DNA of 64,000 nt, from assembly GCA_963662655.2 (NCBI GenBank), contig CAXXTU010000002.1, forward strand, positions 448,001-512,000. The letters are read 5' to 3'. The translations under genes and the position numbers were made by a program. The notes under the pieces are model-generated. The model did not search any database. It was not told the origin of the DNA and saw nothing but the letters and a program-made list of their open reading frames with translations. The stretch comes from Candidatus Cloacimonadales bacterium (lineage in GTDB: Bacteria > Cloacimonadota > Cloacimonadia > Cloacimonadales > JAIOQZ01). Shown here one piece after another: positions 4,701 to 54,226 of this stretch (the stretch's first letter is position 1; each line of letters begins with the position of its first letter).

Positions 4701-5915
4701 CTCATCGAAAACCAAAGCGTCAAGATCGCGTCTCCATTTCCAAAGACTGATTTGCGAGCTGTTGAGGATGATTTTTATCTGTTTTTCACGCTCCTTGAGG
4801 GCGCGCATGGTCCTTTTCAGATTCAGAAACAGGATGATCGTGAGTATCAAGGCGACAATGAGGATCGCGAAGAGGTAAATGGACGCTCCCGCATAGATTT
4901 CAATGAACTTCCGGATTGAACTCTTCTCTTTCTGTATGACGGCGTTGTCCGGAAGCAGGGCTATTGGAATATCGAATCGCTTGATCAGATTCGAATCGAA
5001 GACGATATCGATTTTGAAGGGGAGGGGATTCTCCATCTGTGTTCCACGAACGATCTCGATAGTCCTCTTCCCGATATAATCCCCCAATTTCGTCCCGTTC
5101 AAGAAAAATCCGCCGACGGCTAGCCTCGAAATCATATCGCGTTGATTCGTAATGATCGGGGTATCTGAGAGCGCTAGGATTTTATTTATATCCATCTGCG
5201 TGATGCGGTTATTGAAACGGTCAAAACAGTAGTTCAATACGACAGCAAAGGACTTCCCCTCCAGGGAAGCAAAACCTTCGACGATCTCCTCGGCGGTGAA
5301 TCCGCTGAACTCGTGATATTCATGTTCGTTCAGGAATACCGAAACCGATTTTCGCATGGATTCAAGCCCTGCCTGGTCTGAAACCGTTTGATCCGATATC
5401 GCGACAATGTTTTTTGCATCCGGGAAAGCTCCGACAGCCCATTCGATAGCCGATAAAGTAGTGTTCGGAACCGGAATGTAATGGAAATTATCAATTTCCT
5501 CGTCCCCGGGTGGCAGGTTGGAGGCCGGTCCGCAGAAAATAATCGGAATTCCAGGGAAAATTGTACTGCGGTACTCGAGAACGAAGTCTAACGAGATCGG
5601 ATCGTAAACGATAAGCGCGGTCAGATCGATATTATAGTATTTCGAGTGGATGAGACGCGCCTGGTTGGTGATGACATCCGGTTCGCAGAAATGAACTCGA
5701 TCAAGATACTCGATGTAAATCATTGTGTCAATGCTCTGGCCGAGGTAGCTTCTGATCCCCGAGTCCACCGCGCTGCTCCAGGAATCGCCGGTGCAATGGG
5801 CGTTGATGATCAGGAATTTGTCGGGTTTTATATCCATTGCGTGGAGAGCAAGGGTATGTACGGCGCAAAACAAGACGATGAAGAAAGCTACATTCGAGTT
5901 AATGATTCGTTTCAT
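1755..5915 (-). CDS. Hybrid sensor histidine kinase (periplasmic sensor, multiple PAS, HisKA/HATPase, receiver)
   Basis: H-box [12 protein letters not shown]-box MNLCTNA, G-boxes DTGKGI and GTGLGL, receiver ILFIDDE...ITDQTMP; several PAS/PAC repeats. Confidence 0.95.
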
Positions 5916-30281: not shown

Positions 30282-30300
30282 CAGACCTCCCTTCGGTCGC

Positions 30301-30392
30301 GAATGCTGAATGAGGAATGAGAAATTATGAATGAAGAGACCGGTCGGCGACATCTCCGGGCATTCATCATTCCTAATTTATAATTCATCATT
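30301..30392. repeat. Inverted heptamer-repeat element 1
   Basis: GAATGCT GAATGAG GAATGAG AAATTAT GAATGAA - spacer - TTCATCA TTCCTAA TTTATAA TTCATCA. Confidence 0.8.
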
Positions 30393-31830
30393 GAACTTCC
30401 CACGCCTTGAGCACGTACTCGTCCGCCTTGGGGTCGCGCTGCATCTCGGTGATGCGATACTGGACGCCCTCGATGAGTAGCTTGTCGAACAGCGCAAGGT
30501 CGTATTTCGCGAGGTTGTCGATAGTTGTTTCGAGGCTCCACGTCTGGCAGAAGAGCGTTTCGTAGTAGTCCGCGATGAGCTGCTTCAGGTTGGTCGTGTC
30601 GCCGACAAGGCAGTCCAGAACGGACGTGTCTGGACGGGAGCGATTGAGCCGCTTCCGCTTGAATTCAACCACATCTGCCGAATCGATGGTGGTGACCGTG
30701 TTTGAGGCATCGTCCTTGTTGACCAGCCGTAGCGTGCCGCCGGGCAACGAAACGATGGTAAGGTTGTGCAGGAGCAGCGCGGCTTTCAGGGCCTTCAACT
30801 TCTCCAGCGGCTCGTTCTCGCCCTCATAGAAGCCCTTCGGATAGAGGTTCGCCGGAATCGCGTTGCCCGTGTAGGCGACGCACTTGTATTCCGGCGCCGT
30901 CGCGTCGTCGAGGTCGGCGTCTTCTATTCCTATACTATAGATACTGCTATTGTGGTGAAACGTCCGCGCGGAAGCCCACGGTTCGAACGGGACGTACTCC
31001 GCGCACAGATCGTCGCGCCACGCGAGCATCTCGGAGTACTGCGTCGTGCTGAAGATTTCCGACTTCTCGTCGATCTCGGCGTCGCCGTCCTCGATCCAGC
31101 AGATCGCGTTGTAGAAGCGAAACTTGCGAGCATAGACCTTGCATTGGATGTTGCCCTCGTTGACGTGCTCGCAGTAGAAAAGCAGGCGGAACTCGGGGAC
31201 ATAGTCGCCGCTGAACATGGGCGCGTAGCGGAAGCCACAATAGCAGGTCAGTGAGCCGTTCCACGAGCGGAACTTTCGCACCATGCGCAGCCAGTCGAGT
31301 CGCAGGATTTGCAGGTCTTCCACAGCGATCTGGAGCGGCGTGTAACCGTACCATGAGCAGGGGATGGTGATTTCATTGCTCAGCGCGGACTCGATGCCCT
31401 GCGCCAGATAGCGGAAGCAGTAGTCGGCGGAGTAGCCGCTGTGGAGGGCATAGAGCATGGTCTGGTCGTCGAACTTGGCGAACAGCCGCAGGTAGTCGTA
31501 GCAGGTGAACGAGACGACGTCGGTCTTGGCGTTGTGACTGACGAACGAGGTGTCGACGATTCCGTGAAAGACCAGCGAGGAGCCCTCGTAGAGCCGCACG
31601 AGGAAGTGCGAGATGTAGCGGTCGTACTCGTGTTCGCCGGACAGGATGTTCGCATCGATCCAGTCGTCGCGGAAGCACTCGAACTCGACCCGGCGCGGTT
31701 CTTTGGCGAAGTAGCTCGTACCGGCGATCTTGTCGGCGTTGAGCCGGATGTTGTCCAGTCCGTCAGCAAGGCTGAGCGTGTGCTGCACCGAGTAAGTGAA
31801 GCGGTCGACGAAATCCACGCGCCACATCAC
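30388..31830 (-). CDS. Phage tail-associated protein downstream of the tape measure gene
   Basis: 480 aa ORF translationally coupled to the TMP; assignment by position. Confidence 0.7.
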   Translation of the reverse strand: MMWRVDFVDRFTYSVQHTLSLADGLDNIRLNADKIAGTSYFAKEPRRVEFECFRDDWIDANILSGEHEYDRYISHFLVRLYEGSSLVFHGIVDTSFVSHNAKTDVVSFTCYDYLRLFAKFDDQTMLYALHSGYSADYCFRYLAQGIESALSNEITIPCSWYGYTPLQIAVEDLQILRLDWLRMVRKFRSWNGSLTCYCGFRYAPMFSGDYVPEFRLLFYCEHVNEGNIQCKVYARKFRFYNAICWIEDGDAEIDEKSEIFSTTQYSEMLAWRDDLCAEYVPFEPWASARTFHHNSSIYSIGIEDADLDDATAPEYKCVAYTGNAIPANLYPKGFYEGENEPLEKLKALKAALLLHNLTIVSLPGGTLRLVNKDDASNTVTTIDSADVVEFKRKRLNRSRPDTSVLDCLVGDTTNLKQLIADYYETLFCQTWSLETTIDNLAKYDLALFDKLLIEGVQYRITEMQRDPKADEYVLKAWEVQ

Positions 31831-34842: not shown

Positions 34843-35718
34843 TTAGAAGTTCCTGATCAGTATCTCTGAACTCGCTCTGTTCGTTCCAGACACCGAGTAT
34901 CTCGTGTTCACCACATCGATGGTGAAGTTCTTGTACAGCTCGCGGATAACGGGGTGGTCATTGTAGCTGAGCAGCCATTTGCCCTGCACCTCGCGTAGCA
35001 GCTTGGCCAGCTCCTCGTGCTGGTCAAAGGCAGCCACCTTGTCGCGCTCGTAGAGCATCTCACGCTCGTAGTAGGGCGGGTCGATGTAGAAGAACGTCGC
35101 TGGTCGGTCGTACTTGCGGATGACGGCCTCGTAGTCGAGTCGCTCGATGATCACGTCTCGTAGCCTCTCACTGGCAGCTTCCAGCTTGCCCACGCGACGG
35201 ATCGGCAGCATGGTCAGGTGACCGCGCACGGCGAACGTGCTGCTGAGACTGCCGTAGGAACACGCCAGCACGTAGTAGAAGCGCACCGCGCGTTCGAGGT
35301 CGGTGCGCGACTCGCTATCGAGGAACTCGTGGAACAGCTCCCGCGAGGCGAGAAGCCGGTCGAGTTCCGCTTTCAGCGCGGCCGGATGGTGCTTCACATG
35401 CCGCCAGAAATTCACCAACTCGCCGTTGATGTCGTTGAGGATTTCGCGGTACTTCTGGCCCTTCGTCGCCTGCCATTCCTTGTGGTCGCGCGACTTAGCG
35501 AACAGGATCCATGCTGCACCAGCAAAGGGTTCGCAGTTATGGCGAACGCCGATAGGCGTGAGTCCTGACCAGCTATCCAGCAGGTTCAAGCTGCGAGTTT
35601 TCCCGACGTAGTGGATTCGTGCTTCGCACTCACCATGTGTGTCGTGCTTCGGGATGAGCGGAACAATCGCCTTGCGCAAGAGTCGCTTGCCGCCCACCCA
35701 GCCGATGACGCTATTCAT
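34843..35718 (-). CDS. Dam-family (D12) DNA adenine methyltransferase 2 with an in-frame insertion before motif I
   Basis: WVGGK, EPFAG and YIDPPY motifs; about 33 extra residues between PKHDT and CEPF. Confidence 0.85.
   Translation of the reverse strand: MNSVIGWVGGKRLLRKAIVPLIPKHDTHGECEARIHYVGKTRSLNLLDSWSGLTPIGVRHNCEPFAGAAWILFAKSRDHKEWQATKGQKYREILNDINGELVNFWRHVKHHPAALKAELDRLLASRELFHEFLDSESRTDLERAVRFYYVLACSYGSLSSTFAVRGHLTMLPIRRVGKLEAASERLRDVIIERLDYEAVIRKYDRPATFFYIDPPYYEREMLYERDKVAAFDQHEELAKLLREVQGKWLLSYNDHPVIRELYKNFTIDVVNTRYSVSGTNRASSEILIRNF
35541..35634. repeat. Structured micro-insertion A (two GA-hairpin arms)
   Basis: GGCGA-ACGCC-GATA-GGCGT-GAGTCC, 47-nt spacer, GGATTC-GTGC-TTC-GCAC-TCACC. 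Confidence 0.8.
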
Positions 35719-36472
35719 CTGACACCTCGTAGTTTGCGATGATAACCTCCTTGAACATGCTCTCGCCCTTCATCCGGTTGATCCCCTTCACGCGAGAGAC
35801 CGGGATGATGGTGTGACCAGCGTACAGCTCGCGCACCTCAGGGCAGTCGTCGTAGGAGAGTAGCCAGCGGCCTTTCACGCCCTTCAATACGTCGCGGAGC
35901 TTCTCGTGGTCGAAGTGTCTGGCGTTGGCGTATGTCGTGCCATGCACGTATGGCGGGTCGCAGTAGAAGAACACGCCGGGCCGGTCGTAGAAGGCGATCA
36001 GCTCCTCGTAGGGCAGGTGTTCGATGGTCACCTTGTCGAGCCGCGTGCTGAGGTCGTGGACGCGAGCTAACTTGCGCTGCATACTGCTCGGACCTGATGT
36101 CGAGGCGCGTCCGAAGTGTTCGCCCTTGCCGCCGAACGAGCGGGTGATGATGTAGAGGAATCGCGCGGCGCGTTGCAGCTCCGTGAGTCCGGGCTGCTCG
36201 ACCAGCTCGTCGAACAGGGCGCGTGAGGCTGGCATCAGCTCGAGCTCCTTCACGAGCGCGTCGGGGTGGAACTTCACCTGCAGGAAGAGGTTCGTCAGCC
36301 GCGCATCGAGGTCGTTGTACACCTCGAGACGAGCCCAGCGGTCACGGTGAAAGAGCACCCAACCCGCGCCGCCGAACGGCTCTACGTAACCGGTGATGTC
36401 GTCCGGCACCAATGCGGCGATTTTCTTTCGCAGCAGCTTCTTGCCGCCGATCCATGTAATCAGACTATCCAT
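35711..36472 (-). CDS. Dam-family (D12) DNA adenine methyltransferase 1
   Basis: WIGGK, YVEPFGGAG, VYND and YCDPPY motifs. Confidence 0.9.
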   Translation of the reverse strand: MDSLITWIGGKKLLRKKIAALVPDDITGYVEPFGGAGWVLFHRDRWARLEVYNDLDARLTNLFLQVKFHPDALVKELELMPASRALFDELVEQPGLTELQRAARFLYIITRSFGGKGEHFGRASTSGPSSMQRKLARVHDLSTRLDKVTIEHLPYEELIAFYDRPGVFFYCDPPYVHGTTYANARHFDHEKLRDVLKGVKGRWLLSYDDCPEVRELYAGHTIIPVSRVKGINRMKGESMFKEVIIANYEVSDE

Positions 36473-36976
36473 TTGATTTCCTTGTGGTTTCGATGGCGAG
36501 GCAGTAGCGGAGGTAGAGTTCGGGCAAGCTCAGCTCGATGAAGTCAGCCTGCGTGAACCCCACCCCGCGCAGGGCCATCTCGAGCCGTTCGGTGGCGAAA
36601 CACGAAGTGTTGAGTCCATGCTCTAAGGACTCGTGCTTGCGCACTCGCCTGTAGCTGTCCCCGCTTCGACCCGCGCCGTGTAGCCCAAAGCGTCGAGCAA
36701 GGGCGTCAACGCGTGCCAACTGCCTCTGACAGCCGAGAAAAAAGCCGTAAACGCCTCCGCCGCCAGCTCGGGGCCGATGTCCTCGGGCTCGCGTCCGGTG
36801 AGGATACGCAGGATGTCGATGTCGACGTGGGATTCTTCGAGCAAGTCCAGGAAGTCGACTTCGCTTAGCTCGACCTCGTTACCGGCGAGCAGGTCGGTCA
36901 GCCCATCGCGGAGTTGATCGTTGCGAAGCAGCGTCGAGAGTACCTTGCGGAAGGTCGCGTATGAGATGTCCATCAC
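36465..36976 (-). CDS. Tail assembly chaperone with predicted -1 frameshift extension (G/GT type)
   Basis: ORF 36623-36976 has in-frame T TTT TTC at 36743-36737; the -1 frame is open to 36465; lies between the tail gene and the TMP. Confidence 0.7.
36594..36649. repeat. Structured micro-insertion B (same family as A)
   Basis: GGCGA-AACAC-GAA-GTGTT-GAGTCC, 9-nt spacer, GGACTC-GTGC-TTGC-GCAC-TCGCC. Confidence 0.8.
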
Positions 36977-37736: not shown

Positions 37737-37937
37737 CTACGCGCTTTTAACGATGTTGTCGCAGTGCGCGAGGATGAAGCCGACGATGGCCTCCTTGAAC
37801 TCGCGGAACTTGGCCACGAAGGCGTCGTCGATGGTGTTCTCGCTACGCTTCGCGAGGGCTTCGAGCGCGCTGATGACGGCGTCCACAATCGGCTCTGCGA
37901 GAGCCTTGATCGCCTGTTTGAGTATCCACTTCCACAT
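37737..37937 (-). CDS. Small phage protein
   Basis: 66 aa; RBS AAGGAG; A..SENTIDD motif. Confidence 0.7.
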   Translation of the reverse strand: MWKWILKQAIKALAEPIVDAVISALEALAKRSENTIDDAFVAKFREFKEAIVGFILAHCDNIVKSA

Positions 37938-37957
37938 ACGTAACTCCTTTCAGTCGT

Positions 37958-38049
37958 TAATTATGAATTAGGAATTATGAATGATGACAACTGGCGGTTT
38001 GGTCGCGTCTGTGCCTTCATTTCTAATTGCTCATTCCTCATTCATCATT
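37958..38049. repeat. Inverted heptamer-repeat element 2
   Basis: TAATTAT GAATTAG GAATTAT GAATGAT - spacer - TTTCTAA TTGCTCA TTCCTCA TTCATCA. Confidence 0.8.
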
Positions 38050-38057
38050 GATTTTGG

Positions 38058-39829
38058 TTAGTCGGTGAGTTGGTAGAATTTCACGAAGCCGGGAACGTAG
38101 GTGATGCCGGGCCGGATGCGGATGTACCAGTGATACTTCCAGTCCGAGCCGTGGTGCTCGACCTTGAGTTCGGCGTCCGTGCGGTAGCCGATGATGATGA
38201 ACTTCGTCAGGCCGCAGACGATGTAGTTGTCAGGCAGGAGCCGCGCCTTGACCGGGATGCCGCTGAAGCTGACCTTGCCGCCCTCCAGGAGCAGCTTGTC
38301 GCCCTTGTTGGTCTCGCGTTGGCCAAGCTCCGTGCGAATGCGAATGAGGTCTTTGTGGCTCACATAGATGCGGAAGCTCTCCTGCTCCTCCAGCATCTCG
38401 TCGGTGAATGCAAGCAGCACTTGCTCGAACCGTTCGGTCCACTCGTCGTAGGTGGTGGGACTGATGGCGGTGATGTCCGTGCCATCGGTCGCGAGCTTCA
38501 CGAGACCGTTGAGAGCCTTCAGCTTGGCGGTCGCCGACGCGCGGTCGCCTCGGAACAACAGCAGACGCATCGCCTTCTCGGTCTTGCGCGCGATGTGCTG
38601 CTCGACGTAGGCCCCGAACGCATCCTCGCCGTACTTGTCCTTGTAGAACTCCACGACGTCGCGCCCCAACGTGAACTCGGCCATCAGGATGCCGGTCGGG
38701 CAGGACAGATCGGCGGTGGCGACGTCTTGCGCACTCAGAGTGCCGTCCAGCGAGTTGTGGAAGATCAGGTCTTCGATCAGGCCGACGTCGATCTTCTCGT
38801 CCTTGAGCAGCGGGATGACCGAGATGTCGGTGAGCGTGTCGCCGGGCTTGGAGCCGATCACTTCGTCGATGAACAGACTCGTGTTGTTGGGCGTGAGGAT
38901 GCTCATCGCCTTGCCGGAATCGACGTCCGCGATGCCCTTGTAGATCTCGCGGTGCGCGGCCTTCACGAGCACCTTCTCGCCGTTGACGATCACTTCGCGG
39001 TCACCGCCGTCGGCGTCGGGTTCGCCCTGAATGCTCTTCGAAATCGCGCGACTCATCGTGGCCGAGAGGCTGTCGAGACTCTTCTCGATGGACTTCACAG
39101 CCTCTCGCAGACCGCCGTCGCCGATGCCGTTCTCCAGCCTCGAAACCTTGCTCTCCAGCTCGTCGATGGCGGACTCGAGCTCCGCTTCGCGGTCGGCGTC
39201 CTTGAGCGACTTCTTCAGGTCGCGCAGCCCCGCAATCTCGTCGCGGATGGCCTTCAAGGTCTCGCCGGTGTCGTTGTAGTCGTCAGCGCGACCGTAGATC
39301 GACACGCCATTGAAGTCGCCCTTCTCGACTTTTTTCCACAGCGCGGAATCGAGGTCGTCGCACTTCAAGACCTGCACCCAAGCTCCAACTTTCGTGTCGG
39401 GGAAATGGGTCCTGTCCTCGGTCTTGAGGATGTAGTTTTCGGCCACCGAGAAGTCGTCGATCGGGTGGTTGTTGTGGTTGATGTCGTTGCGCCCGACCAT
39501 GTAGTGGCGGCTTGCGAAGCAAACGCCAGCCCTCAAGCGTGTCTGCTGAAGTGGTCGCACGCCTTCTGGATCTCCTCGGCCGTGTAGAAATCGCCCTGCG
39601 CGTCCTTCACGTCCGGCTCCATCAGGGTCACGAACAGCCGCCCTTGACGGCCTTTCGTCTCGCTTTTGAACTTCACGGACGAGCCGCGCACCTTGTACGC
39701 TTTTCCGCTCGCGGCCTTCACCACGAAGCCCTTCTGATTGGCGGGATTCATGTCGTCGAACAGGAGCGACACGAGCTCCACCTCGACGTTGCGCAACTCA
39801 CCCTTGCGCACGGTTTTACGTTCTGTCAT
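38058..39829 (-). pseudogene. XkdF-like prohead protease/major capsid fusion interrupted by a 35-nt hairpin insertion
   Basis: N-part 39533-39829 (ELVSL..PAN, EPD..DAQGD...EEIQKAC..F) and C-part (DINH, GAWV, GDFNGVSIYG, then a capsid-like region) are in different frames, separated by insert C. Confidence 0.8.
39504..39538. repeat. Structured micro-insertion C
   Basis: Hairpin TGGCG-G-CTTGC-GAA-GCAAA-CGCCA (39505-39528); CAC codon repeated on both sides. Confidence 0.75.
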
Positions 39830-42743: not shown

Positions 42744-43225
42744 AGCGGGTTGCCCACGTATGACACAGGAATAATATTATTCAGAATTATTTATTTTTTG
42801 AATTAGTTATACTAATGGAGAACAGATCACAAATATACGAAGGAGTACGATGTGTGCGGCAAATAATGATATTCCGTTACCTTTTTCCATCAGAGAAACA
42901 AAGTAAAAACATGCTAATATGCTGCGGATTCTCGATTTAACCTTTTGTTGATTAAATGTGTATAAAAAAATATTTGACAAGATGGGATTCCAAGCCTATT
43001 GATTAGTTAATCAATGCTAACATCAGAATTCTCTTGGATATGTGTGTGTGGGGGGGGTGTAATTATAAGATATGCATTAATAATACAAATTATGCTTTTC
43101 TTGGAGGGATTATGTAGTACGATGGAAGAATTGGCAGTGCAAATGAATGAGATGTGATTGATCTTGCAGGAACTGTTGACACCTAACAATTAACTGAACG
43201 TTAGTACAAAATCTCAGGAGGAATT

Positions 43226-46006
43226 ATGAAACGAGTAATTTTATGCGTCTCTCTGGTGTTGACGATGGTCAATATTTGTTTTGCAACAACCTATATCGTG
43301 GCAAACAACGGAACTGGAGACTTCCTGAACATTGCCTCTGCGGTTGCTGCGGCAAGCGATGGTGATCAGATCGTTATTTATGGCACTGGGCAAGATTATA
43401 CTGGGACACAGAATCGAAACATTGTTCTGGATGGATCTCAAAAACATCTCAGGATTATTGGCATGAATAATCCCGTCATAGACCTTGAAAACACAAGCAG
43501 AGCTTTTATAGCCCAGAACACGAATGCAAGCGATTGCATTACCGATATCAGGTTTGAAAACGGGCTTGTAACATCCAACTATGTTCAAGGTGGGGCAATC
43601 ATGCTTAGCAGTGGTGAGCTTTACGTTGAGGATTGCGAATTCTGGTACATGATGATAGCCGGCGAGTATTTCAAAGGTGGTTCAATTTCAGTAGGCGAAG
43701 ATGCCTCGGCTACGATCGTGAACTGTAACTTCTACAGCGGTGGCTATACAGGTACGCTTACATTACCTGGGAATAGGACGATAGCCGGAGGAGTAATCTA
43801 CTCTCAGGACGCTGAAGAGATCATTATTAGTAACTGTCAATTTATCGGAAACTCCGCAAAATTTGCTTCGTGTATTGGAGTATCCGGGGATACGGATATC
43901 GAGATCACAAATTGCAGATTCTCAAGCAATATGTGCTTTATGAGCGGCACAATATGTGTATGGGGAACGAGCCAAATAAGTGATGCATTGATACAAGATT
44001 GTGAATTCTCGAACAATATAGCTCAGAGCGGTGATCCTGGGATATATGCACAGCAAACATGCGTAAGTATAAGTGGTATGAATAGTTGTTTGATTCAGAA
44101 CAATGAATTTGATGGCAACAGGGCAGAAGACGGATCTGCTTGTATCTATTTCTTTCATATCACAGATATGGTCATTGACAACAATGAGTTCACCGACAAT
44201 CGAATCATCGAAGGCGGAGGAGCTACCGCCGCTAATAGCATCTCTGCATCATCATGTTCCGCCCATATCCTCAATAACAAGTTTATCGAGAATTATGGAA
44301 TGTCCCCCTGCATATCACTAGCCAATGTCACATATAATGATCCAGCATATGTCGAATTGAATATATGGAACAACACCTTCGATAATACTGTGTCAATAGG
44401 TAGTTACTACCATCCGCTCATATTCAATCATATACTTGACAGTAGTGGGATTAATGTAGATATCGATGTGAGAAACTGCATCATGATCAACAATGACGCA
44501 CTGGTTTTGTTTTACTCGCCTGACTTTGATTATGGGGATATTTACTGTGACTATGCCTGGATGAACAATAATACTTGCCATCCAATTCCGCCATTGTTTG
44601 ATGAATTTGTTACGTATGGCCAGAACATGTTCAGTGGAAATCCTTACCTTGATACGAGCCACACTCCTATGTGGAACTCAAGTGTTCGCTCACCGGTTAT
44701 CGATGCGGGATATCCATCAATCGCGGACGATGACGGAACCCCGAGCGATATCGGTGCCGTTCGAGCTCAGGATCATGATTTCGAGAGATACTCCTATCGG
44801 GCTCCAGGATTTGGATCTGCCAGCGATTATGAATGGGTATGCTACCCGGTTGTCGATAACGTCTATACGGCCGAAAACAATGCCTCGGACTTCTTTGAAG
44901 ATATTGATGAAGATTTAACGGCTCTAGGGCACAATAATGTATGGGGCACTGACTATGGTACCTATTGGGAGTATCCCTGGGAAGATGATCCGGACGATAC
45001 CGATCCTACTGATGGATTCAAATTACAGGTAAGTTCCGGTACCGTTATGAATAAGGTTGGGTTTCTTGCCGATCCCGATACCGAAATTACACTAACGGCC
45101 TCTAGCTATTCATATTGGATCGGTTATTTCATCGAGGAAAGCCAGTATCCTCTTGATGCCCTTGCAGACGTTCTCGACGATCTGACAGAGATCAAACATC
45201 ATGACTGGACACTTGTAAAGACAGGCTTGGGCTGGCTTGGGGGAAGTTCTTATACGATCAACTATGGCGATATGGTTGAATTGACCTGTGAATCCAATTG
45301 TTCATTCGCATGGAACGATAACCTCAGCCGAACGGCTCCTGCTTATAAAGAGCAAACAAGCCATTACAGCGTTGAAGAAGATGCGGGTTATACACCGGTG
45401 TACTTGGATGTAAGCGGATATTCGGATAACATGCCCGAAGAGATTGGCATGTATGCCGATGGTGAATTGATCGGCGCTACCGTGGTTGATGGTGAGATAA
45501 CGCAGATCAACGCATATGTGGAAGACATTGAAAACCTCGAAGAAGCCGAAGTAAGCTTCGAGCTTTTCTATGGTGATCGTGCACCGCTTGTCGGATGTGA
45601 CATGTATAAGGTAAATTCAGATATAACCGAGGACTATATCAAGACCACACATATGTTCGAGACTCAGTCGCGTTACTATCAGGTTACGCTTGGGAAGGGT
45701 GGTGTCGAGACTCTTGTTCCCGATCTTCCGGAAACTGTCAGTATCAATAACTATCCCAACCCGTTTAACCCGGAAACGACCGTATCCTTTACCTTGCCTC
45801 AGGATGGCAAAGTGAGTATCAAAGTGTTCAACGTTCGCGGTCAGTTGGTGAAGACATTGGTTGACAACAATCTGAATGCCGGCAAGCATGAAATCGTGTG
45901 GAATGGCCGTGATGAAGAAAATCGTCAGGTTGGTTCAGGCATCTACTTCTGTCGTCTTCAGACAGCAGGAAAGATACTGAACCGTAAGCTGTTGATGATG
46001 AAATAA
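43226..46006 (+). CDS. Secreted right-handed beta-helix protein with C-terminal FlgD-Ig/T9SS-like sorting domain
   Basis: Signal peptide; I.NC.F..N repeats; SPVIDAG..DIGA; NYPNPFNPET...WNGRD..SGIYF; RBS AGGAGG. Confidence 0.88.
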   Translation: MKRVILCVSLVLTMVNICFATTYIVANNGTGDFLNIASAVAAASDGDQIVIYGTGQDYTGTQNRNIVLDGSQKHLRIIGMNNPVIDLENTSRAFIAQNTNASDCITDIRFENGLVTSNYVQGGAIMLSSGELYVEDCEFWYMMIAGEYFKGGSISVGEDASATIVNCNFYSGGYTGTLTLPGNRTIAGGVIYSQDAEEIIISNCQFIGNSAKFASCIGVSGDTDIEITNCRFSSNMCFMSGTICVWGTSQISDALIQDCEFSNNIAQSGDPGIYAQQTCVSISGMNSCLIQNNEFDGNRAEDGSACIYFFHITDMVIDNNEFTDNRIIEGGGATAANSISASSCSAHILNNKFIENYGMSPCISLANVTYNDPAYVELNIWNNTFDNTVSIGSYYHPLIFNHILDSSGINVDIDVRNCIMINNDALVLFYSPDFDYGDIYCDYAWMNNNTCHPIPPLFDEFVTYGQNMFSGNPYLDTSHTPMWNSSVRSPVIDAGYPSIADDDGTPSDIGAVRAQDHDFERYSYRAPGFGSASDYEWVCYPVVDNVYTAENNASDFFEDIDEDLTALGHNNVWGTDYGTYWEYPWEDDPDDTDPTDGFKLQVSSGTVMNKVGFLADPDTEITLTASSYSYWIGYFIEESQYPLDALADVLDDLTEIKHHDWTLVKTGLGWLGGSSYTINYGDMVELTCESNCSFAWNDNLSRTAPAYKEQTSHYSVEEDAGYTPVYLDVSGYSDNMPEEIGMYADGELIGATVVDGEITQINAYVEDIENLEEAEVSFELFYGDRAPLVGCDMYKVNSDITEDYIKTTHMFETQSRYYQVTLGKGGVETLVPDLPETVSINNYPNPFNPETTVSFTLPQDGKVSIKVFNVRGQLVKTLVDNNLNAGKHEIVWNGRDEENRQVGSGIYFCRLQTAGKILNRKLLMMK

Positions 46007-46142
46007 TTTCGGCTTCAGCGAAGCTGAAACGAAAACATGAGTGATGTAATCCCGAATATTCGGGACTACACTAGCGGATAATCATAATCCAGCCCCGCCT
46101 CCAACTCCCTCTCCCGCTTGCGGGAGAGGGTTGGGGTGAGGG
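46006..46142. repeat. Cluster of REP-like palindromes
   Basis: TTTCGGCTTCAGC-GAA-GCTGAAACGAAA; TGTAATCCCGAATATTCGGGACTACA; CCCTCTCCCGCTTGCGGGAGAGGG. Confidence 0.7.
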
Positions 46143-46159
46143 TGTATTAAGGAGACCTC

Positions 46160-48529
46160 ATGCGAACCCGAATAACCTTGCTTCTGTTGTTGCTGACTCC
46201 GATGCTCTTTTCGACCACGCTCACCGTCTCTCTGGACGGGTCGCAGGACTATACTACAATACAAAGTGCCGTGGATGCCGCGATTAACGGCGATACCGTG
46301 CTGGTTTACCCGGGCACCTACTATGAGAATATCGAGATTGATGACAAATTCATTACCCTCGCCAGTCTGAACCTCACAACCGGTGACGAATCCTACATCC
46401 ACAATACGATTCTGGACGGTAATTTCAGCGGTTCTGTTATTCGTATGGATCTTGAGACATTGCCTCAACCTGCCGATGCCGTCATCCAAGGATTCACAAT
46501 CATTCATGGAAGTGGTAATATTAGAACTTGGACTTGGCCCGAGTATGGCGGCGGTGGAATATGGGTCGAATGCGCAAATAATGATATATGGATGAATGTC
46601 TATATCACGAATTGTCAGATAAAATACAATATAGCCGATTGCGGAGCAGGCATGGGATTAGCTTATCGAGGCTATTTCCACATGAAGAACGTCAGTGTTC
46701 ACCACAATACAGCTCGTACGGGAGCTGGAGGTGTTTTGTGTAATAGAGTCGGATTGATTCACGATCCTGATTTTCCTTGCAGCTATTACGCTAATGAAGG
46801 AACTCCGGGTCATGATCTCAATATCGGTAACGCAGTATTGAACACAACGATCTATGCCGACACATTGACGTGTTCCGAGTACGATCAGGGTTTTATTCGA
46901 TACATACCTCAGAATGATGATAATGATCTGGTGCTTACGGTTTACCATGAGCATTCCATTCTGGATGTAATCGATCATGATCTGTACGTCTCACCGGATG
47001 GTGATGACGATAACAGCGGATTGTCCGCAGATGATCCCCTCTATACGATTCGCCAGGCTGCCTACCTGATCCGGTCCAATCCGGATAACCCGAGGACGAT
47101 CTACCTTGCTCCCGGCGAATACACCGAGGAGGAAGGTCCACTGCAATTCACGGTTGGTCTAAAGGACCATGTTTCTCTCATCGGGAGCGGTATGGATGAG
47201 ACATTTCTCGAATGCAGTCAATCAAGGTGTATCATTTATATGAACAACAACGAGGATATCCAGATATCCGGTATGACTTTGAAATCCAGTTATCCTATCA
47301 ATAATGGAGAATGGTCGCCTTGTTTGATTCTTGGTGTATATATTGACGACCTCACCATTAAGGATATCCGAGCACATGATTCGGAATTTGGGAAATCTGC
47401 TGCGATTTCGGTCTGGCATGTTGACCGTCTGGATATGGACAATATTATCATCGAGGATAACGTTGGTGAAGCCTATTGCGGTTTATATGTCATCGCTGAG
47501 GATGTTACGCTGACCGACTGCATTATCCGGAACAATCTTGTTGTCGGCTATGACAACGTGTACTCGGCTTCCTCTGCCTTCAATATTGATACGAAAGGAA
47601 ACTGTCTGATCGACGGTCTTGTCGTGATGAATAATGTGAATGAATGCGGATCTGAAGGTCAGATGACGGGGTTGCTTCACCATGGAGCTAACTATCCGGG
47701 CTCGAGCCTGAAGATAACCAACAGCCTTTTCAGCGGTAATAATTCGGAGGGTCAGGAGTGTTTCCAATTCCAATTGTTTCGAGGGAATCTGGATTTAATA
47801 AACTGTACGTTCATCGGCAATGAAGCCGAGGAGATGGTACTGAAGTTCCTGAGAACCAACACTGAAGCTGAGGTAGATCCCTTTCAGGTGATCAACACGG
47901 TATTCTGGGATCATGTGCCTTATGAACTATCGAACTGGAGTTACCGGCGCTGCGCCATCGAGGTCGATCACAGCCTTATACGCGACGGTATTGACGGCAT
48001 CGATTCACCCTACGACGAGATCATCTGGGGTGAAGGCAATCTCGATCTCAATCCGCTACTGACCAATGCCGAGCAACTGTATTACCCGCAGGAAGGCTCT
48101 CCGGTCATCAACGCCGGTACACCGGATACCACCGGCTTGGGACTGCCGCCGCTCGATATCTGCAACCGCGCTCGCGTATGGGCAGGATGCGTCGATATCG
48201 GCTGCCACGAGTACGGCTCTGTAGGTGTTTCACCGGGAGATCAAGCACCGGTCTATGAAGCATCACTCGGCAACTATCCCAACCCATTCAATCCATGGAC
48301 GATCATCAGCTATAGCTTGCCGGAAGCCGTGTATGTGGAGTTGAACGTGTACAATATTCGCGGTCAGCGTGTCAGAACGCTGGTGCATGAGCACCGGGAA
48401 GCCGGTAATCATGAAGTCGTCTGGGATGGACGGAATGAGCAGAATGATATCGTCGCTGGTGGTGTGTATCTGCTGCGCCTGCAAGCGGGTGGACGTACCG
48501 AGGTGCGGAAGACGTTGATGGTTAAATGA
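46160..48529 (+). CDS. Secreted beta-helix (DUF1565-like) protein with C-terminal FlgD-Ig/T9SS-like domain
   Basis: Signal peptide; YTTIQSAVDAA..GDTVLVYPGTYYENI; LYVSPDGDD.NSG; NYPNPFNP; RBS AAGGAG. Confidence 0.88.
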   Translation: MRTRITLLLLLLTPMLFSTTLTVSLDGSQDYTTIQSAVDAAINGDTVLVYPGTYYENIEIDDKFITLASLNLTTGDESYIHNTILDGNFSGSVIRMDLETLPQPADAVIQGFTIIHGSGNIRTWTWPEYGGGGIWVECANNDIWMNVYITNCQIKYNIADCGAGMGLAYRGYFHMKNVSVHHNTARTGAGGVLCNRVGLIHDPDFPCSYYANEGTPGHDLNIGNAVLNTTIYADTLTCSEYDQGFIRYIPQNDDNDLVLTVYHEHSILDVIDHDLYVSPDGDDDNSGLSADDPLYTIRQAAYLIRSNPDNPRTIYLAPGEYTEEEGPLQFTVGLKDHVSLIGSGMDETFLECSQSRCIIYMNNNEDIQISGMTLKSSYPINNGEWSPCLILGVYIDDLTIKDIRAHDSEFGKSAAISVWHVDRLDMDNIIIEDNVGEAYCGLYVIAEDVTLTDCIIRNNLVVGYDNVYSASSAFNIDTKGNCLIDGLVVMNNVNECGSEGQMTGLLHHGANYPGSSLKITNSLFSGNNSEGQECFQFQLFRGNLDLINCTFIGNEAEEMVLKFLRTNTEAEVDPFQVINTVFWDHVPYELSNWSYRRCAIEVDHSLIRDGIDGIDSPYDEIIWGEGNLDLNPLLTNAEQLYYPQEGSPVINAGTPDTTGLGLPPLDICNRARVWAGCVDIGCHEYGSVGVSPGDQAPVYEASLGNYPNPFNPWTIISYSLPEAVYVELNVYNIRGQRVRTLVHEHREAGNHEVVWDGRNEQNDIVAGGVYLLRLQAGGRTEVRKTLMVK

Positions 48530-48556
48530 TCCTGTTTGGATCACTCGGGATGTAGC

Positions 48557-49048
48557 ATGGATTATGTTTCAAAAGAAATCAGAAGCCGCATGATGAGCTC
48601 GGTCCGTTCCAAGAGCACAACGAATGAAGTACTGATTCGAAAGTCTCTGTTTCATCTCGGACTAAGATACGGGCTTCACAACAAAAACCTTCCCGGTCGT
48701 CCTGATATCGTGCTTCGCAGACATAGAACTGCAGTGTTTGTAAACGGATGTTTCTGGCACATGCATGGTTGTCACTTAAGCTCTATCCCCAAAACGAGAG
48801 TGGATTGGTGGCGAGACAAGCTTATGAGCAACAAAGCAAGGGATATCTTGAATTACAAAAAGCTATTGAGTATGCATTGGCGTGTCGCTATTATTTGGGA
48901 TTGTGCTTTAAAAGGCAAGAACGGATTGACAGCAGAATTCATTGCTTTAAAATTGCAATCATTCTTAATTGATGATGTCTCTGTCATTTGTTGTGGTGGC
49001 AGGGGAATTACTTACCCAACAAACATTGAAGGTGTGTACTATGGCTGA
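48557..49048 (+). CDS. vsr: Very-short-patch repair endonuclease
   Basis: RSRMMS.V, LPGRPDIV, FVNGCFWHMH and N..RD motifs. Confidence 0.9.
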   Translation: MDYVSKEIRSRMMSSVRSKSTTNEVLIRKSLFHLGLRYGLHNKNLPGRPDIVLRRHRTAVFVNGCFWHMHGCHLSSIPKTRVDWWRDKLMSNKARDILNYKKLLSMHWRVAIIWDCALKGKNGLTAEFIALKLQSFLIDDVSVICCGGRGITYPTNIEGVYYG

Positions 49049-51203
49049 AATTGATCTTCCTTTCAAAGTCCACCCAAGAGTGTTTTCTGCTCTCGGTGCA
49101 GAGCTTGTAACGGATGACATTGTTGCTGTTATTGAGTTGGTTAAAAATTCGTATGACGCTTTTGCACAAAGAGTACTGATAAGCCTTGAGTTTGGGTACA
49201 AGAGCATTTCGATCATCGATAACGGTTCCGGAATGGACAGGAAGACAATTGAGGACGTTTGGTGTACATTGGCTACGCCAAATAAGGTAAACCTCCCGTT
49301 TAGCGAAAAAGACAACAAGAAAAGGCGTGTTACAGGAGCCAAAGGGTTAGGGAGATTATCTGCTGCAAGGCTTGGTGGAAAGCTTGAAATGATTACAAAA
49401 GCAATGGGGCAACCGGCATGGAAAGTATCCGTTGATTGGGAGTTGATTAAAAAGGCTCAAGGATTTGAACTTTGTAATGCTCATCTTAAAGAATATACGG
49501 GAAAACTCCCATGGGGTGATGATAATCAAACCGGTACATCGGTTGTGATATCGAATCTCACTTCTACATGGGATGTGGACATGATAAAAGCTCTCAGGGA
49601 TAACTTGGGACGGCTAATATCCCCCTTTGCCCAAACAACAGATTTTGAGGTGCTTTTTTCTGATATCACGGACGATATTACATTTGATGCTCCAGCAATC
49701 GAGGTCAAGCCATACAGAATCGAACCATCACCCTTTCTACTTGAACCAAAATATCGGATTAAGGGCTCGGTTGATCCGACTGGTGGGTATTCAGGAAAGT
49801 ATGAGTTTCGCCAAATAGGGTCAGATAAGATCGATAGAGAAGTCGCCATCACTAAGAAATGGGTTGATATCTTTCGTGAATGGAGTGAATCGGAAAAAGA
49901 AGGGCACAATGAGAAATCAGCCGTTTGTGGGCCCTTCGATTTTGAGATCCGGGTTTGGGATCTCGATTCTTATGATACAAGTGAAATAGCCGAGTACTAT
50001 CAAATAAAGAAGAAATCAGATATCAGAAAAGCCATTGCAGCTCACAAGGGTGTTTCCGTGTACAGAGATGACATTCTTGTTCTTCCCAAAACAGATACTG
50101 CACGTGATTGGTTGAGGCTTGACTTGCGACGTGTTAGCCGAGTAGGTGATCGACTGAGTACAAGCCAGATTATCGGTTTCATCTCTATCTCTGCTGACAA
50201 GAATCCTGACATCAATGATTCAAGTGATAGAGAGAAACTTCAAAAGAGTACTGCAACTGTAGAATTTGAGCGCATTATTCATTCAATCATTCATGATCTT
50301 GAGCAAGAGAGAAATGCTGATAGATTTGTAAAAAATGTACATAAGGAGAAACGACTTGTTGAGCTTTTCGAGTCATTCGCACAACGCGATTTTCTTGATC
50401 GATACAAACGACTTGCAGAAGAGGGAACTCCGGCAATAGACCTGCTGCCATTGCTTGAATCGGAACACAGCGATTGGGAAAAAGCAAGTGAGGAGATTAA
50501 ACGACGCTTCGTTTATTACAGTCGACTGGCGACTGTTGGCTCTATTGCGGAAATGCTGATTCATGAGATCAGGAACAATACAACTTGCATCGGTCGATTC
50601 CTGCGTCTCTTCACGGATGAGATAAATGAATGCTCGGCTCAATTGGAGAAGTACCACGGTGTTTCGGAGAATTCAGTTGAAAGACTTGAGCATTTGTCCG
50701 ACACGTTCTCCCCCTTAGCAACCAGGAAATTCAAGAGAACAAAACGAAACTCGGACTTACAATCTCGTCTTGATTTTTGTCTCGAGTTGCATGAGAAAGA
50801 GATTGATGCAAAGAAAGTAACGATTACCCAATCCATTCCTCAAGCTATCATCTTGCGAATTGATCCCGGTGAATTAGATGCTATACTGATAAACCTAATC
50901 ACAAATACACTGTATTGGATTGCCGATAGCAATGAGTCCATGCGTAAGTTGAATATTTCAGCCAGCACAAACGGGAGTAGGCTCGAGATAGTGTTCGATG
51001 ATACAGGCCCCGGAATCAGGGACGGCTATGTCGATAGAATATTCGAACCTGGAGTTACAGCAAAAACCAATGGTATCGGAATGGGGTTGACCGTTGCATC
51101 TGAACTTGTTTCGGCATGTGGTGGAAGGATGTCAGTCATACACCCCGGTACATTGGGCGGAGCTACATTTGTTTTCGATATGCCAATTTTGGAGGTAAAA
51201 TGA
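49041..51203 (+). CDS. GHKL (MORC/HSP90-like) ATPase fused to a histidine kinase
   Basis: ELVKNSYDA, DNGSGM, GAKGLGR; C-terminal IHEIRN, NLITN, DTGPGI and GIGMGL. Confidence 0.88.
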   Translation: MAEIDLPFKVHPRVFSALGAELVTDDIVAVIELVKNSYDAFAQRVLISLEFGYKSISIIDNGSGMDRKTIEDVWCTLATPNKVNLPFSEKDNKKRRVTGAKGLGRLSAARLGGKLEMITKAMGQPAWKVSVDWELIKKAQGFELCNAHLKEYTGKLPWGDDNQTGTSVVISNLTSTWDVDMIKALRDNLGRLISPFAQTTDFEVLFSDITDDITFDAPAIEVKPYRIEPSPFLLEPKYRIKGSVDPTGGYSGKYEFRQIGSDKIDREVAITKKWVDIFREWSESEKEGHNEKSAVCGPFDFEIRVWDLDSYDTSEIAEYYQIKKKSDIRKAIAAHKGVSVYRDDILVLPKTDTARDWLRLDLRRVSRVGDRLSTSQIIGFISISADKNPDINDSSDREKLQKSTATVEFERIIHSIIHDLEQERNADRFVKNVHKEKRLVELFESFAQRDFLDRYKRLAEEGTPAIDLLPLLESEHSDWEKASEEIKRRFVYYSRLATVGSIAEMLIHEIRNNTTCIGRFLRLFTDEINECSAQLEKYHGVSENSVERLEHLSDTFSPLATRKFKRTKRNSDLQSRLDFCLELHEKEIDAKKVTITQSIPQAIILRIDPGELDAILINLITNTLYWIADSNESMRKLNISASTNGSRLEIVFDDTGPGIRDGYVDRIFEPGVTAKTNGIGMGLTVASELVSACGGRMSVIHPGTLGGATFVFDMPILEVK

Positions 51204-52264
51204 GAGTACTTGTTATTGATGACGATAAAAATAGCATAGAGCCTTTGCTGGATGACCTGAATGAACAAGAGCACGAAGCTTGTTTCAATAACTTTGTCGA
51301 TGAATCGGAAATACTGAAGCTGGTATCAGACACGTTGCCAGACCTACTTGTTCTCGACTTGAAAAATGCCGCTCAGCAATCGGGTGACAATGATATAGCA
51401 GGTTCAAAGATTTTCGAACAAATATGGCAAGAACGATTCTTTCCGGTTCTGATTTACTCTGCATATCCTGATTTAGTCTTAAATAGACTTCCGAAAAACC
51501 CGTTTATAGGAAGAGTAACGAAGGGTGCGAACTCTGAAAAGGAAGTAATAAATTGGATTAACGGGAAACAGAATGTTGTTGAATTGCTTCATGAGATTGA
51601 TAATGAAGTGGCAAAATCAAAACACGATACCCTCAAGTCCATAACCCATTATCTTGGTGAAGGTTTACCGGAAGCGAAAATTGTTAGCTATCTTATTAAA
51701 AGACGTGTCGCAGCACTAATGGATATTGCCGACGGTGACATTTCGGTTCCGGCGTGTTTCAGATACATTTATCCACCAATATGTAAGTATTCAAGGATGG
51801 GAGATGTAATTGCAAAGAGGGATAGCAAAGAATTCTGGATAATTCTAACTCCATCCTGTGATATGGGCGATGATGGGCAAGAACCGAAAGTAAAAAAAGT
51901 TATAGCTGCTCGGTGCTATGAAATTAGTCCAGATCGAGTTGACGAGTTCAAGTTTGGAAAGAAGAAGAACAAAATACGACAAGTTCTAACTCAAGGACAT
52001 CAAAAAGAATTCATACCGATACCTTCATTGCCTGAAAAGTTTCCTCATTTAGTTGTGAATTTTAAGGAAATCGAATTAATACCAATCGAAGAAATAGGGG
52101 ATTCTGATAATGTGAAGTATAGGAGAATCGTCTCAATTGATAGCCCCTATCGCGAGCAAATCTCTTGGGCATTCATTCAGGTAGCCGGTCGTCCGGGAGT
52201 ACCGAGTGTTGATATTGATAAATGGGCAGAGGAACTTGAAGTACTATTCGGTGGGAACTCATGA
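51200..52264 (+). CDS. Response-regulator receiver protein with an uncharacterised C-terminal domain
   Basis: VLVIDDD, LVLD and IYSA; C-terminal GD....ILTPSCD...R.G.P. Confidence 0.8.
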   Translation: MRVLVIDDDKNSIEPLLDDLNEQEHEACFNNFVDESEILKLVSDTLPDLLVLDLKNAAQQSGDNDIAGSKIFEQIWQERFFPVLIYSAYPDLVLNRLPKNPFIGRVTKGANSEKEVINWINGKQNVVELLHEIDNEVAKSKHDTLKSITHYLGEGLPEAKIVSYLIKRRVAALMDIADGDISVPACFRYIYPPICKYSRMGDVIAKRDSKEFWIILTPSCDMGDDGQEPKVKKVIAARCYEISPDRVDEFKFGKKKNKIRQVLTQGHQKEFIPIPSLPEKFPHLVVNFKEIELIPIEEIGDSDNVKYRRIVSIDSPYREQISWAFIQVAGRPGVPSVDIDKWAEELEVLFGGNS

Positions 52265-53316
52265 TCGGTCTTGATTTTTTTTGCGGAGCCGGTGGACTTA
52301 CCAGAGGATTAATAGATGCCGGAATACAGGTTCTTGGCGGTATTGATTTGGATAATCGGTGCAAAAATACATATGAGAACAACAACAATGCCGTATTTTG
52401 GGATGCCGATATTCGTGAAATCAATGGACATATGATCAAAGAGCGTTTCCCGAAGCTCTTTAAACAAACTGACGATGTCCTTTTTGCTGGATGTGCACCT
52501 TGTCAGCCGTTTAGTCAACAGAGAAATTCAAAAACAGAAAGACCGGACAAAAACATCTTACTTGAATTCGGTCGTCTTATTGAAGAGTGTAAACCTGGGT
52601 GGGTTCTTATTGAGAATGTACCGGGTATTGCATTAAGTCGAGATCCTAAAACAACGCCATATAGTTGTTTTCTTAAAATCCTTAATCGTTGTGGATATCG
52701 ATATGCTCCGGATTTCATTAACGCTAAAGATTACGGTGTTCCACAAAATCGCAGACGCTTCGTTCTGCTTGCGACAAGAATACCCGATATAGAAATAACT
52801 CTTCCAAAAAAGACACATGGCTCTGGTCTTGCGGAATACAAAACTGTCCGACAAACTATTTCGCAATATCCTCCAATATCGCAAGGAATGACGGATTCAT
52901 CCATTCCGAATCATACAAGCGCTAAATTGTCTCCTATCAATTTGCATCGCTTACAAGTGACTCCACATGATGGCGGCGATAGGCGTTCATGGCCAGAGCA
53001 TCTTGTGCTCAAGTGCCATAAAAATCATTCTGGACATACTGATGTATATGGGCGTATGTATTGGGGACAACCTGCTCCGACTCTGACAAGTAAGTGCACT
53101 AGTATCTCTAACGGTAGGTACGGACATCCGGAACAAGATAGAGCAATTTCACAAAGAGAAGCAGCAGCGTTACAGACATTTCCCGATGATTACGTCTTTT
53201 TCGGTTCGACTCCATCGATTGCCATGCAAATAGGGAATGCAGTACCTGTATTGCTCGGAATGCGTCTTGGCGAGCATATATTAGATTTACTCAACAGGAC
53301 AAATCGGGGTAATTAG
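52261..53316 (+). CDS. dcm: DNA cytosine-C5 methyltransferase
   Basis: DFFCGAGG, PCQPFS, ENV, PQNRRR, REAAALQTFPD and IGNAVP motifs. Confidence 0.93.
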   Translation: MIGLDFFCGAGGLTRGLIDAGIQVLGGIDLDNRCKNTYENNNNAVFWDADIREINGHMIKERFPKLFKQTDDVLFAGCAPCQPFSQQRNSKTERPDKNILLEFGRLIEECKPGWVLIENVPGIALSRDPKTTPYSCFLKILNRCGYRYAPDFINAKDYGVPQNRRRFVLLATRIPDIEITLPKKTHGSGLAEYKTVRQTISQYPPISQGMTDSSIPNHTSAKLSPINLHRLQVTPHDGGDRRSWPEHLVLKCHKNHSGHTDVYGRMYWGQPAPTLTSKCTSISNGRYGHPEQDRAISQREAAALQTFPDDYVFFGSTPSIAMQIGNAVPVLLGMRLGEHILDLLNRTNRGN

Positions 53317-54074
53317 TGCTTAAATACGCATTCAGAACTAATGATGTCTATTCTCGAAAAGATGTGTATCGTGTAATCGGTATTTCCGAGGACACTCATG
53401 GTGGAGTATGGGACACCGGCTATGCAATACACAATGAAGACTATTTCATCTTCACAAACGTTGGAGTGCCTGGAAGGACCGGTCATAATTACAAAAACAG
53501 ATTTGAAGGTGACCGTCTCATCTGGTTCGCCAAAACAGTACCAAAAATAGGGCAACCGCAGATCAAGGAACTATTATCTCCACCAGGATATGTGTATGTG
53601 TTTTTCCGTACTGAGAACAAAGCTCCCTTTACCTATGCAGGCACTGCAATACCAATAGCTTTCGAGGATGTTTCGCCTGTCCAAATAACCTGGCAAATAA
53701 TTAATGAATATACTCATACAACCATAATGACTGAAGAAGACACCGAATTACATGAGGGGAAAGCTCTTTATCGTACGGGATTAATCTTCGAACGAAATCC
53801 TTTAGCACGTAAAAGATGCATTGATCATTACGGATGTCGTTGCTATGTATGTGGTTTTAACTTTGAATATGTGTACGGAGAAAAAGGGAGAGGATTCATC
53901 CATGTACACCATTTGGTTCCTCTTTCCAACATAGGTTCCGACTACATTATCAATCCTATTGAAGATTTGAGACCCATTTGCCCTAATTGTCATGCAATGA
54001 TTCATAGGCAGTCACCAGCTCTTTCGATTGATGAACTGAAGCATGAGATGAGAAATCAGTACGATTCCGAGTAG
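53316..54074 (+). CDS. HNH endonuclease (McrA-like C-terminus) with SRA/DUF3427-like N-terminal domain
   Basis: EG....ERN..AR..C, CYVCGFNF...YG..G.GFIHVHH, DL.PICPNCHAMIH. Confidence 0.85.
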   Translation: MLKYAFRTNDVYSRKDVYRVIGISEDTHGGVWDTGYAIHNEDYFIFTNVGVPGRTGHNYKNRFEGDRLIWFAKTVPKIGQPQIKELLSPPGYVYVFFRTENKAPFTYAGTAIPIAFEDVSPVQITWQIINEYTHTTIMTEEDTELHEGKALYRTGLIFERNPLARKRCIDHYGCRCYVCGFNFEYVYGEKGRGFIHVHHLVPLSNIGSDYIINPIEDLRPICPNCHAMIHRQSPALSIDELKHEMRNQYDSE

Positions 54075-54118
54075 TTCTCAATCCCCTGAAAATACTGCAG
54101 ATATCCCCGCTAATATAC

Positions 54119-54146: not shown

Positions 54147-54180
54147 AGAGACATACTTAGGAGCACAAAGGAGACTTATG

Positions 54181-54226
54181 CGTTCCCAAGGGGAACGGCC
54201 CTTGCGGATCGCGAAGCGACCGCCCG
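54181..54226. repeat. Structured micro-insertion D between two ATGs
   Basis: Hairpins CGTTCCC-AAG-GGGAACG and GCGG-A-TCGC-GAA-GCGA-CCGC; ATG at 54178 and at 54227. Confidence 0.7.

Follow-up and report, generated by a model that had tools for sequence, protein, structure and literature searches.

Hairpin-armed insertions in genes of a Mu-like prophage of Cloacimonadota, with possible links to REP-type elements

Results

Two insertions in the late region of a defective prophage

We analysed 64,000 nucleotides of a Candidatus Cloacimonadales genome (hereafter, the window), in which a defective Mu-like prophage (29006–62490, minus strand) was recognised by its gene content. It encodes MuA- and MuB-like proteins, a repressor, terminase, portal, capsid and tape measure proteins, and it has cargo at ~42800–54100 and an IS3-like element at the left. 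At least five partial copies of this prophage are present in the 3.8-Mb genome of the window (G000); the window copy is defective, with terminase and capsid genes split by other small inserts. The cargo, whose names mostly rest on motifs recognised by eye, comprises two secreted proteins with sorting-type ends at their C termini, genes of Vsr-like and HNH-like type, a cytosine methyltransferase, and a kinase-ATPase paired with a response regulator. In two other copies (L040 11200–13720 and G000 C2 4475–6423) the region that runs from methyltransferase 1 up to the tail genes is swapped for differing cargo; both copies resume at the same base, and the left break in L040 lies at most 4 nt from the site of the insert described next.

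The late region carries two inserts, A and B, in neighbouring genes. Insert A (35538–35638; filled in four copies, empty in five) lies in a D12-class N6-adenine DNA methyltransferase gene, methyltransferase 1 (34843–35718, minus strand; PF02086, E 7e-26). It can be read as ~101 nt replacing 2 nt or as a precise 98-nt insertion plus 1 nt; the net gain is +99 (33 codons), in frame, immediately ahead of the CEPF of motif I. The protein counts 291 residues including the 33-residue insert, its relatives mostly 257–264, and in a predicted structure, a weak fold model of low confidence (mean pLDDT 57.5), the insert is disordered. A second D12-class gene, methyltransferase 2 (35711–36472, minus strand; PF02086, E 2e-24), lies between A and B and has no insert. 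Insert B (36594–36653, 60 nt; filled in four copies, empty in six) sits close to the end of the next gene (36465–36976, minus strand), a putative tail assembly chaperone named from its position and frameshift pattern because it has no Pfam or PHROG match; it consists of a 117-residue open reading frame plus a −1 frame, with a candidate slippery heptamer at 36737–36743. B can be taken as an exact insertion at C|A, with changes in a single codon following it. The −1 frame stays open through it, and its 9-nt spacer together with the two inner boxes provides a new stop codon for the upstream frame. A role of B as a frameshift stimulator was considered and rejected, B lying ~85 nt past the slippery site.

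A and B are true insertions in a Mu-like prophage whose sister copies have empty sites, a setting on which the initial annotation of this DNA was silent. They are not assembly artefacts, because short-read contigs of two runs from one sample span both without a single difference. No clean target duplication was seen at the insert junctions, where 0–4 target bases are replaced, and among the read joints that skip A or B none represents a clean excision, their letters being those of the native empty allele or their content unknown. The A-site insert is absent in 9/9 aligned sequences from the 49 protein relatives, and the arms are absent from 31 metagenome loci with methyltransferase 2 relatives (33–75% identity). 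Between two A-bearing genes, 50/56 differences fall at third codon positions.

The same prophages hold further hairpin inserts. At 55949–56022 an insert of 59 nt net (core TTTTGC-GAA-GCAAAA) splits the large terminase gene; it is common to four copies and empty in two to three, and a relative lies in the MuA-like gene of L383 (8875–8955). At 39501–39538 the protease-capsid gene is split by a stop-bearing hairpin insert of 35 nt, and a sister insert in L383 (at 13099) has the same flanks and a stem that is changed yet paired. Hairpin inserts at 54176–54225 (+47) and at 5368–5438 of L039 (+53) are polymorphic between prophage copies. Imperfect palindromes of 104–110 nt with heptamer-like AT-rich repeats (30291–30395 and 37937–38056) are inserted 3′ of stop codons in some copies only.

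Each arm is likely a strand-specific DNA hairpin

Each insert contains two inverted arms, and the positions, letters and spacer lengths first reported for them were all confirmed in the sequence. In A, the right arm (35541–35565, plus strand) has an ACGCC stem and a GATA loop (GGTA in the L039 copy), and the left arm in gene sense (35613–35634, minus strand) has a GTGC stem, a GAA loop and the T-A form of a covarying Y-R pair; they flank a 47-nt spacer (35566–35612). In B, a right arm with an AACAC stem and a GAA loop (36594–36617, plus strand) and a left arm in gene sense with a GTGC stem and a GCAA loop (36627–36649, minus strand) flank a 9-nt spacer (36618–36626). All four inner stems pair, as the initial annotation had said, but they do not all differ: three of the four are distinct, GTGC/GCAC occurring twice. 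Likewise, the boxes GGYGA...GARTCC are present but are not plainly conserved, in that Y and R change together.

Arms of this kind are rare by chance. The window has four, and of its 500 dinucleotide shuffles 498 had none and two had one. Across the whole 3.8-Mb genome there are 262 loose box pairs, eight of which enclose a stem of at least 4 bp and a loop of 3–4 nt: these four arms in each of two prophage copies. When 11 arms were aligned, 84/88 cells paired and the Y-R pair was C-G in six, T-A in five and broken in none, figures whose shuffle control overstates the support because the aligned rows are related and were picked with this fold model. In the member of the family called C2 (see below), the first and last arm bases change jointly.

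The likely reading of an arm is a single hairpin formed by one DNA strand only, in which a T is bulged, G.A pairs stand in tandem and the loop is GNA or GNNA; beyond the inner stem, this fold is inferred. A loop of the form c(GNA)g or c(GNNA)g is found in 8/9 distinct arms, and so is the bulged T. Tandem G.A in a Y-GA-R context forms stable sheared pairs in DNA. A folding program favoured the arm strand by 0.3–0.8 kcal/mol in 9/9 arms; it formed the outer bulged stem in 1/9 and missed it in 8/9, and this outer stem accordingly draws on covariation in an alignment chosen with the same model. GCGNAGC and GCGNNAGC are described as extraordinarily stable DNA mini-hairpins (PMC13037366). The GNA and GNNA loops always lie on the strand that is read inward from their own end. 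Each end would take this fold on the strand beginning at that end, an arrangement that speaks for DNA and not for mRNA.

Four further members with shuffled arms

We looked for further copies and for compensatory changes in them, and both were found. In relatives of the genus, four additional members sit in related prophages: C and C2, each in an endolysin gene (+54 each), D in a major capsid gene (+53, a frameshift) and E in a head morphogenesis gene (+63, with an in-frame stop). Their stems are new and perfectly paired, in agreement with the earlier proposal that structure is what is kept. A, B and E consist of two inverted hairpin arms and a spacer, and C, C2 and D of one arm and a plain 8-bp hairpin, a single design with a common 5′ start at three sites. 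Arm types are shuffled among members: GTGC occurs in A and B, ACGCC in A (right arm) and E (left arm), GAGCC in D and E, and AAACC in C and C2. The reading frame is kept in A, B, C and C2, and the net length is a multiple of three in 5/6 members. A hammerhead reading of C was rejected, the core letters being missing. The 8-bp right-hand hairpin of the C type recurs in a dispersed repeat of one giant-virus bin (L497, L499, L502, L506, L511, L514 and L515).

A model of the arm gave 23 matches at E <0.001 in five genomes. Every one falls within the prophage inserts already known, sequences that the model fits by construction; of six weak matches in the same genomes, five were inspected and dismissed as chance. 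Outside the genus, among 151 genomes, it gave 18 weak matches in 17 genomes: 14 tRNA-Lys-like (two inspected in full), one solo arm (G041), one attC (G210) and two likely due to chance. A tRNA origin of the arms was rejected, as the GARTCC of tRNA pairs inside the T arm and the inner stem is absent. The solo arm-like module (L478, ~1500) lies within an inverted repeat between genes, in a genome from a different family of the order. A two-arm pattern had three matches in viral contigs, none with stems, and 46 in genome_contigs (spacer range 3–33 and one arm of 13 nt, which places A-length spacers outside the range), of which 44 lacked paired stems and two were B itself. With phylum-wide patterns in 232 genomes, only tRNA T-arm look-alikes were new among the matches listed. 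No Rfam covariance model matched over A or B at E up to 10. In the literature searched, we found no description of these elements or of hairpin inserts in Cloacimonadota prophages.

The arms are conserved in place and the spacer drifts

The initial annotation had suggested that the 47-nt spacer may be captured cargo. We compared it with host and phage sequences and found no match above chance: the best match in the host genome was 14 nt (E 1.2), 50,697 phage records gave none, and 72,556 plasmids gave chance matches only (E 0.8 or worse). The spacers of the other five members are 6–10 nt long, and that of A drifts. Between orthologous A copies, 0/47 arm positions and 9/47 spacer positions are changed (Fisher p 0.0026), and third codon positions of the host gene are changed at 50/179. 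In a second A pair there is one arm difference, at a loop position where GNNA is preserved, and there are three spacer differences. Cargo is therefore not supported. No spacer inversion was seen in four A and four B copies, and no strand-changing read joint in four runs.

B shows 0/56 changes in four copies, two of which are distant and have flanks 7–11% apart. The distance among filled B copies is as great as that between filled and empty ones; a tree of the B flanks, from which cp2 and cp4 were omitted as near-duplicates, neither showed nor rejected the filled copies as one clade (p-AU 0.10, 8 rows). The hairpins are decayed in a remnant of C that is dead. Unchanged arms mean either that they still matter in place or that the inserts are re-copied between prophage copies.

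Junctions and a sibling module in REP families

The cut site of TnpA-REP in single-stranded REPs is C|T and, for one enzyme, also C|A, and a C is required as the 3′ base that makes the attack (PMC8266576). On the gene sense strand of our inserts, the last base common with the empty alleles is C in 6/6 members, followed by T in four and A in two, C making up 0.30 of late-gene bases; this count was made after the C|T rule had been read, and A and C2 hinge on a synonymous third base. A GTAG-type tetranucleotide foot is absent, the arms being preceded by TAT, TAC, TACA, CAT or GGT.

A sibling of the arms, module M (T-GTGA-hairpin-TC-GAATCC), has the same GTGA...GAATCC boxes. It pairs GA with TC, not G.A with G.A, and its kinship to the arms therefore rests on the shared boxes. 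Exact copies number 40, 26 and one in three other genomes of the genus (G115, G116 and G117) and zero in the other 229 genomes of the phylum, including that of the window. M lies in the middle of several REP families and also beside two RAYT-like genes, and it starts at C|T in 17/18 distinct contexts, taken from fetched loci that hold part of the 67 copies. High extragenic copy number is a property of this sibling only; the 23 strong arm-model matches in five genomes are all in prophage genes. M measures ~31 nt, with a fixed C|T start and a variable tail of 4–5 nt (G115 and G116, for example L435, L437 and L581–L600), and is probably a finding in its own right. Y1 transposase genes occur in 5/5 relatives searched (17 matches), two of them flanked by M-bearing REPs; none of the 17 is a RAYT gene flanked by true arms, and the genome of the window has no Y1 transposase.

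Two other repeats of G000 were noted. A host repeat family, at ~62916 of the window and at 16 places in the genome, has a GTGTGC-GNA-GCACAC hairpin with a long hairpin of free sequence in front and a GCCGCCCCGCCGCGCTG tail, and at the contig end (C2 3677268–3678422) there is a 192-nt tandem repeat.

The arm recurs at the tips of attC-like sites

Four single-arm patterns gave 285 matches in viral contigs, 16 of them with a perfect stem, and 15 of these 16 (seven distinct arms) form the tip of attC-like sites that lie between small ORFs of phages; the R and L boxes of these sites were parsed by script in 11 and by eye in four. In the short attC-like sites the bulged T stands 6 bp from the extrahelical G, the distance given for attC (PMC5027507). 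In G210, the tip of an attC next to an integrase-like gene is similar but has no T. The arm is thus a shared module, by descent or convergence. The inserts themselves are not attC sites, because A and B have neither an R box (RYYYAAC or GTTRRRY) nor an L box with extrahelical G, and the genome has no integron integrase (best TIGR02249 score 67 bits against a cut-off of 265); a genome scan made no attC-like call at A or B and found no attC array in G000. Arrays of attC-like sites lie between small ORFs of several phage contigs (L097, L110, L174, L176, L177, L338 and L341); in those inspected, the extrahelical G and T seem to lie on the ORF strand, opposite to the usual layout.

Discussion

We give somewhat better than an even chance to the reading that A and B are single-strand insertions of two inverted hairpin modules, for which a transposase of the host genus, of the REP-associated RAYT class (HUH type), would be responsible. 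The arm would fold on one strand only, with two outer pairs, a bulged T, the Y-R pair and tandem sheared G.A pairs below a stem of 4–5 bp, capped by a c(GNA)g or c(GNNA)g loop. A RAYT-type enzyme would bind this folded arm, cut a few bases to its 5′ side at C|T and join the element to a target end finishing in C. A doublet would arise when a second module lands beside the first. The inserts would have no coding purpose, those that keep the frame being translated as passenger loops. The enzyme in this scheme is inferred, and part of an earlier expectation survives in it: a DNA-cutting enzyme that reads folded single strands is likely, and a spacer-capturing recombinase is not. Against the RAYT model stand the very low copy number and the location of the elements inside genes, unlike typical REPs, as well as the lack of a Y1 transposase and of exact M in the window's genome, of a RAYT gene flanked by true arms and of a GTAG-type foot. 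The unchanged arms also count against it, because a dead passenger does not predict conservation.

That last point is where a different mobile reading would gain. The arm could be a free-standing mobile hairpin module of ~25 nt, common to attC tips and RAYT-type elements, that spreads between filled and empty prophage copies in a homing-like manner and disables assembly genes. Such a cycle, if true, would explain unchanged arms within flanks that diverge equally between filled pairs and between filled and empty copies; we grant it a small but real share of the probability. We consider it unlikely that the inserts are pieces of attC, namely apical hairpins left by an integron-type tyrosine recombinase. 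The arm does match the tip of the 15 attC-like viral sites with R and L boxes, the G210 tip is similar, and A begins with a GTTATGG stretch on the plus strand. However, A and B have no paired R boxes and no properly spaced L box with extrahelical G, their hairpins lie on both strands, unlike in attC, the junctions of B, C, C2, D and E are not G|TT, and G000 offers neither an integrase above cut-off nor an array. The conservation of the arms in place could instead reflect selection at the RNA level, where the inserts would act or be removed (as a mini-intron, by ribosome bypass or in late-gene translation control). The prevalence of net lengths divisible by three fits this idea, B folds into a perfect four-way junction, and the few changes in the A spacer fit small G.U stems of the sense strand, stems that were chosen after the fact. 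But in half of the arms it is the antisense strand that bears the GNA loop and the G.A pairs, D puts its gene out of frame, E adds a stop, Rfam matches neither A nor B, and sense-strand folding of A is no better than that of shuffles (z −0.6). The GAA triloops and the GATA, GGTA and GACA loops of the arms are of a type that we take to be DNA-like and not GNRA. We regard an RNA-level role as improbable.

Equally improbable, in our judgement, is an origin without a dedicated enzyme, in which nuclease-resistant hairpin fragments captured at breaks, or products of template switching, persist as the prophages decay. Target bases are lost at several junctions, and the same prophages hold many unrelated hairpin inserts (F to J), as such a process would leave. 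Yet C, C2 and D present one design with an identical 5′ start at three sites, the doublets are not inverted duplications, since the two arms of each differ, and the C|T or C|A bias of the junctions counts against enzyme-free capture. We give least credence to a reading built on the initial annotation, in which a site-specific recombinase or nuclease uses the arms as its sites and captures the spacer as cargo or inverts it. Inverted arms around a spacer of variable length, with conserved arms and a varying spacer, are what it would predict; but the spacer has no source, the other spacers measure 6–10 nt, eight copies show no inversion and four runs no strand-changing joint, and a MuA-like transposase is the only recombinase among the 25 prophage ORFs scanned.

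Returning to single-strand insertion by a RAYT-type enzyme, the elements are best filed as a REP/REPIN-like, non-autonomous single-strand hairpin variant outside any named family. REP, REPIN and BIME elements with their RAYT enzymes (PMC3116915, PMC8266576, PMC3733652) share with the inserts two inverted strand-specific hairpins separated by a less constrained spacer, mosaic combinations of arm types, stems with bulges, junctions at C|T or C|A and occasional in-frame sites in genes; unlike them, the inserts have no GTAG or CGTC tag, exist in one to four copies per member, occur in prophage genes only, combine two arms with unrelated stems and have no flanked RAYT that we found. With integron attC (PMC5027507; for attC clusters of phages, PMC9892861), the arm shares an attC-like tip including the distal extrahelical T, a 2-bp step and the terminal hairpin, whereas the inserts lack the R box, L box, extrahelical G, cassette and integrase and have hairpins on both strands. 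The Rickettsia palindromic elements, as portrayed in PMC10969869 and PMC3733652, are likewise in-frame palindromes in genes that add peptide loops and have no identified mover, but they are of ~150 bp, multi-copy and located in host genes. The present inserts, by comparison, are 54–99 nt, modular and in prophage genes, some of which they break. MITEs of DDE transposons are similarly short and non-coding with inverted ends; they differ in that the inserts make no target duplication and keep their ends as structure, not as a terminal repeat, and no IS matching the inserts was found in G000. The small dispersed repeats of Nostocaceae (Elhai 2008) are reportedly minute hairpin insertions that duplicate no target sequence and sit inside other repeats. 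They resemble our inserts in being tiny hairpins without target duplication, and module M in their nesting, and they differ in lineage and sequence; we know of no doublet design or tandem G.A motif described for them.

These inserts bear on how REP-like elements arise and move. Six insertions with their empty sites and shuffled arm types, together with a high-copy sibling in the same genus, define the junctions exactly and narrow the RAYT candidates to a short list, and the cut-and-join model is therefore directly testable. The occurrence of the same hairpin at the tips of phage attC-like sites hints that integron and HUH systems share or trade modules. For the prophages themselves, the inserts show one route by which assembly genes are lost in Mu-like prophages.
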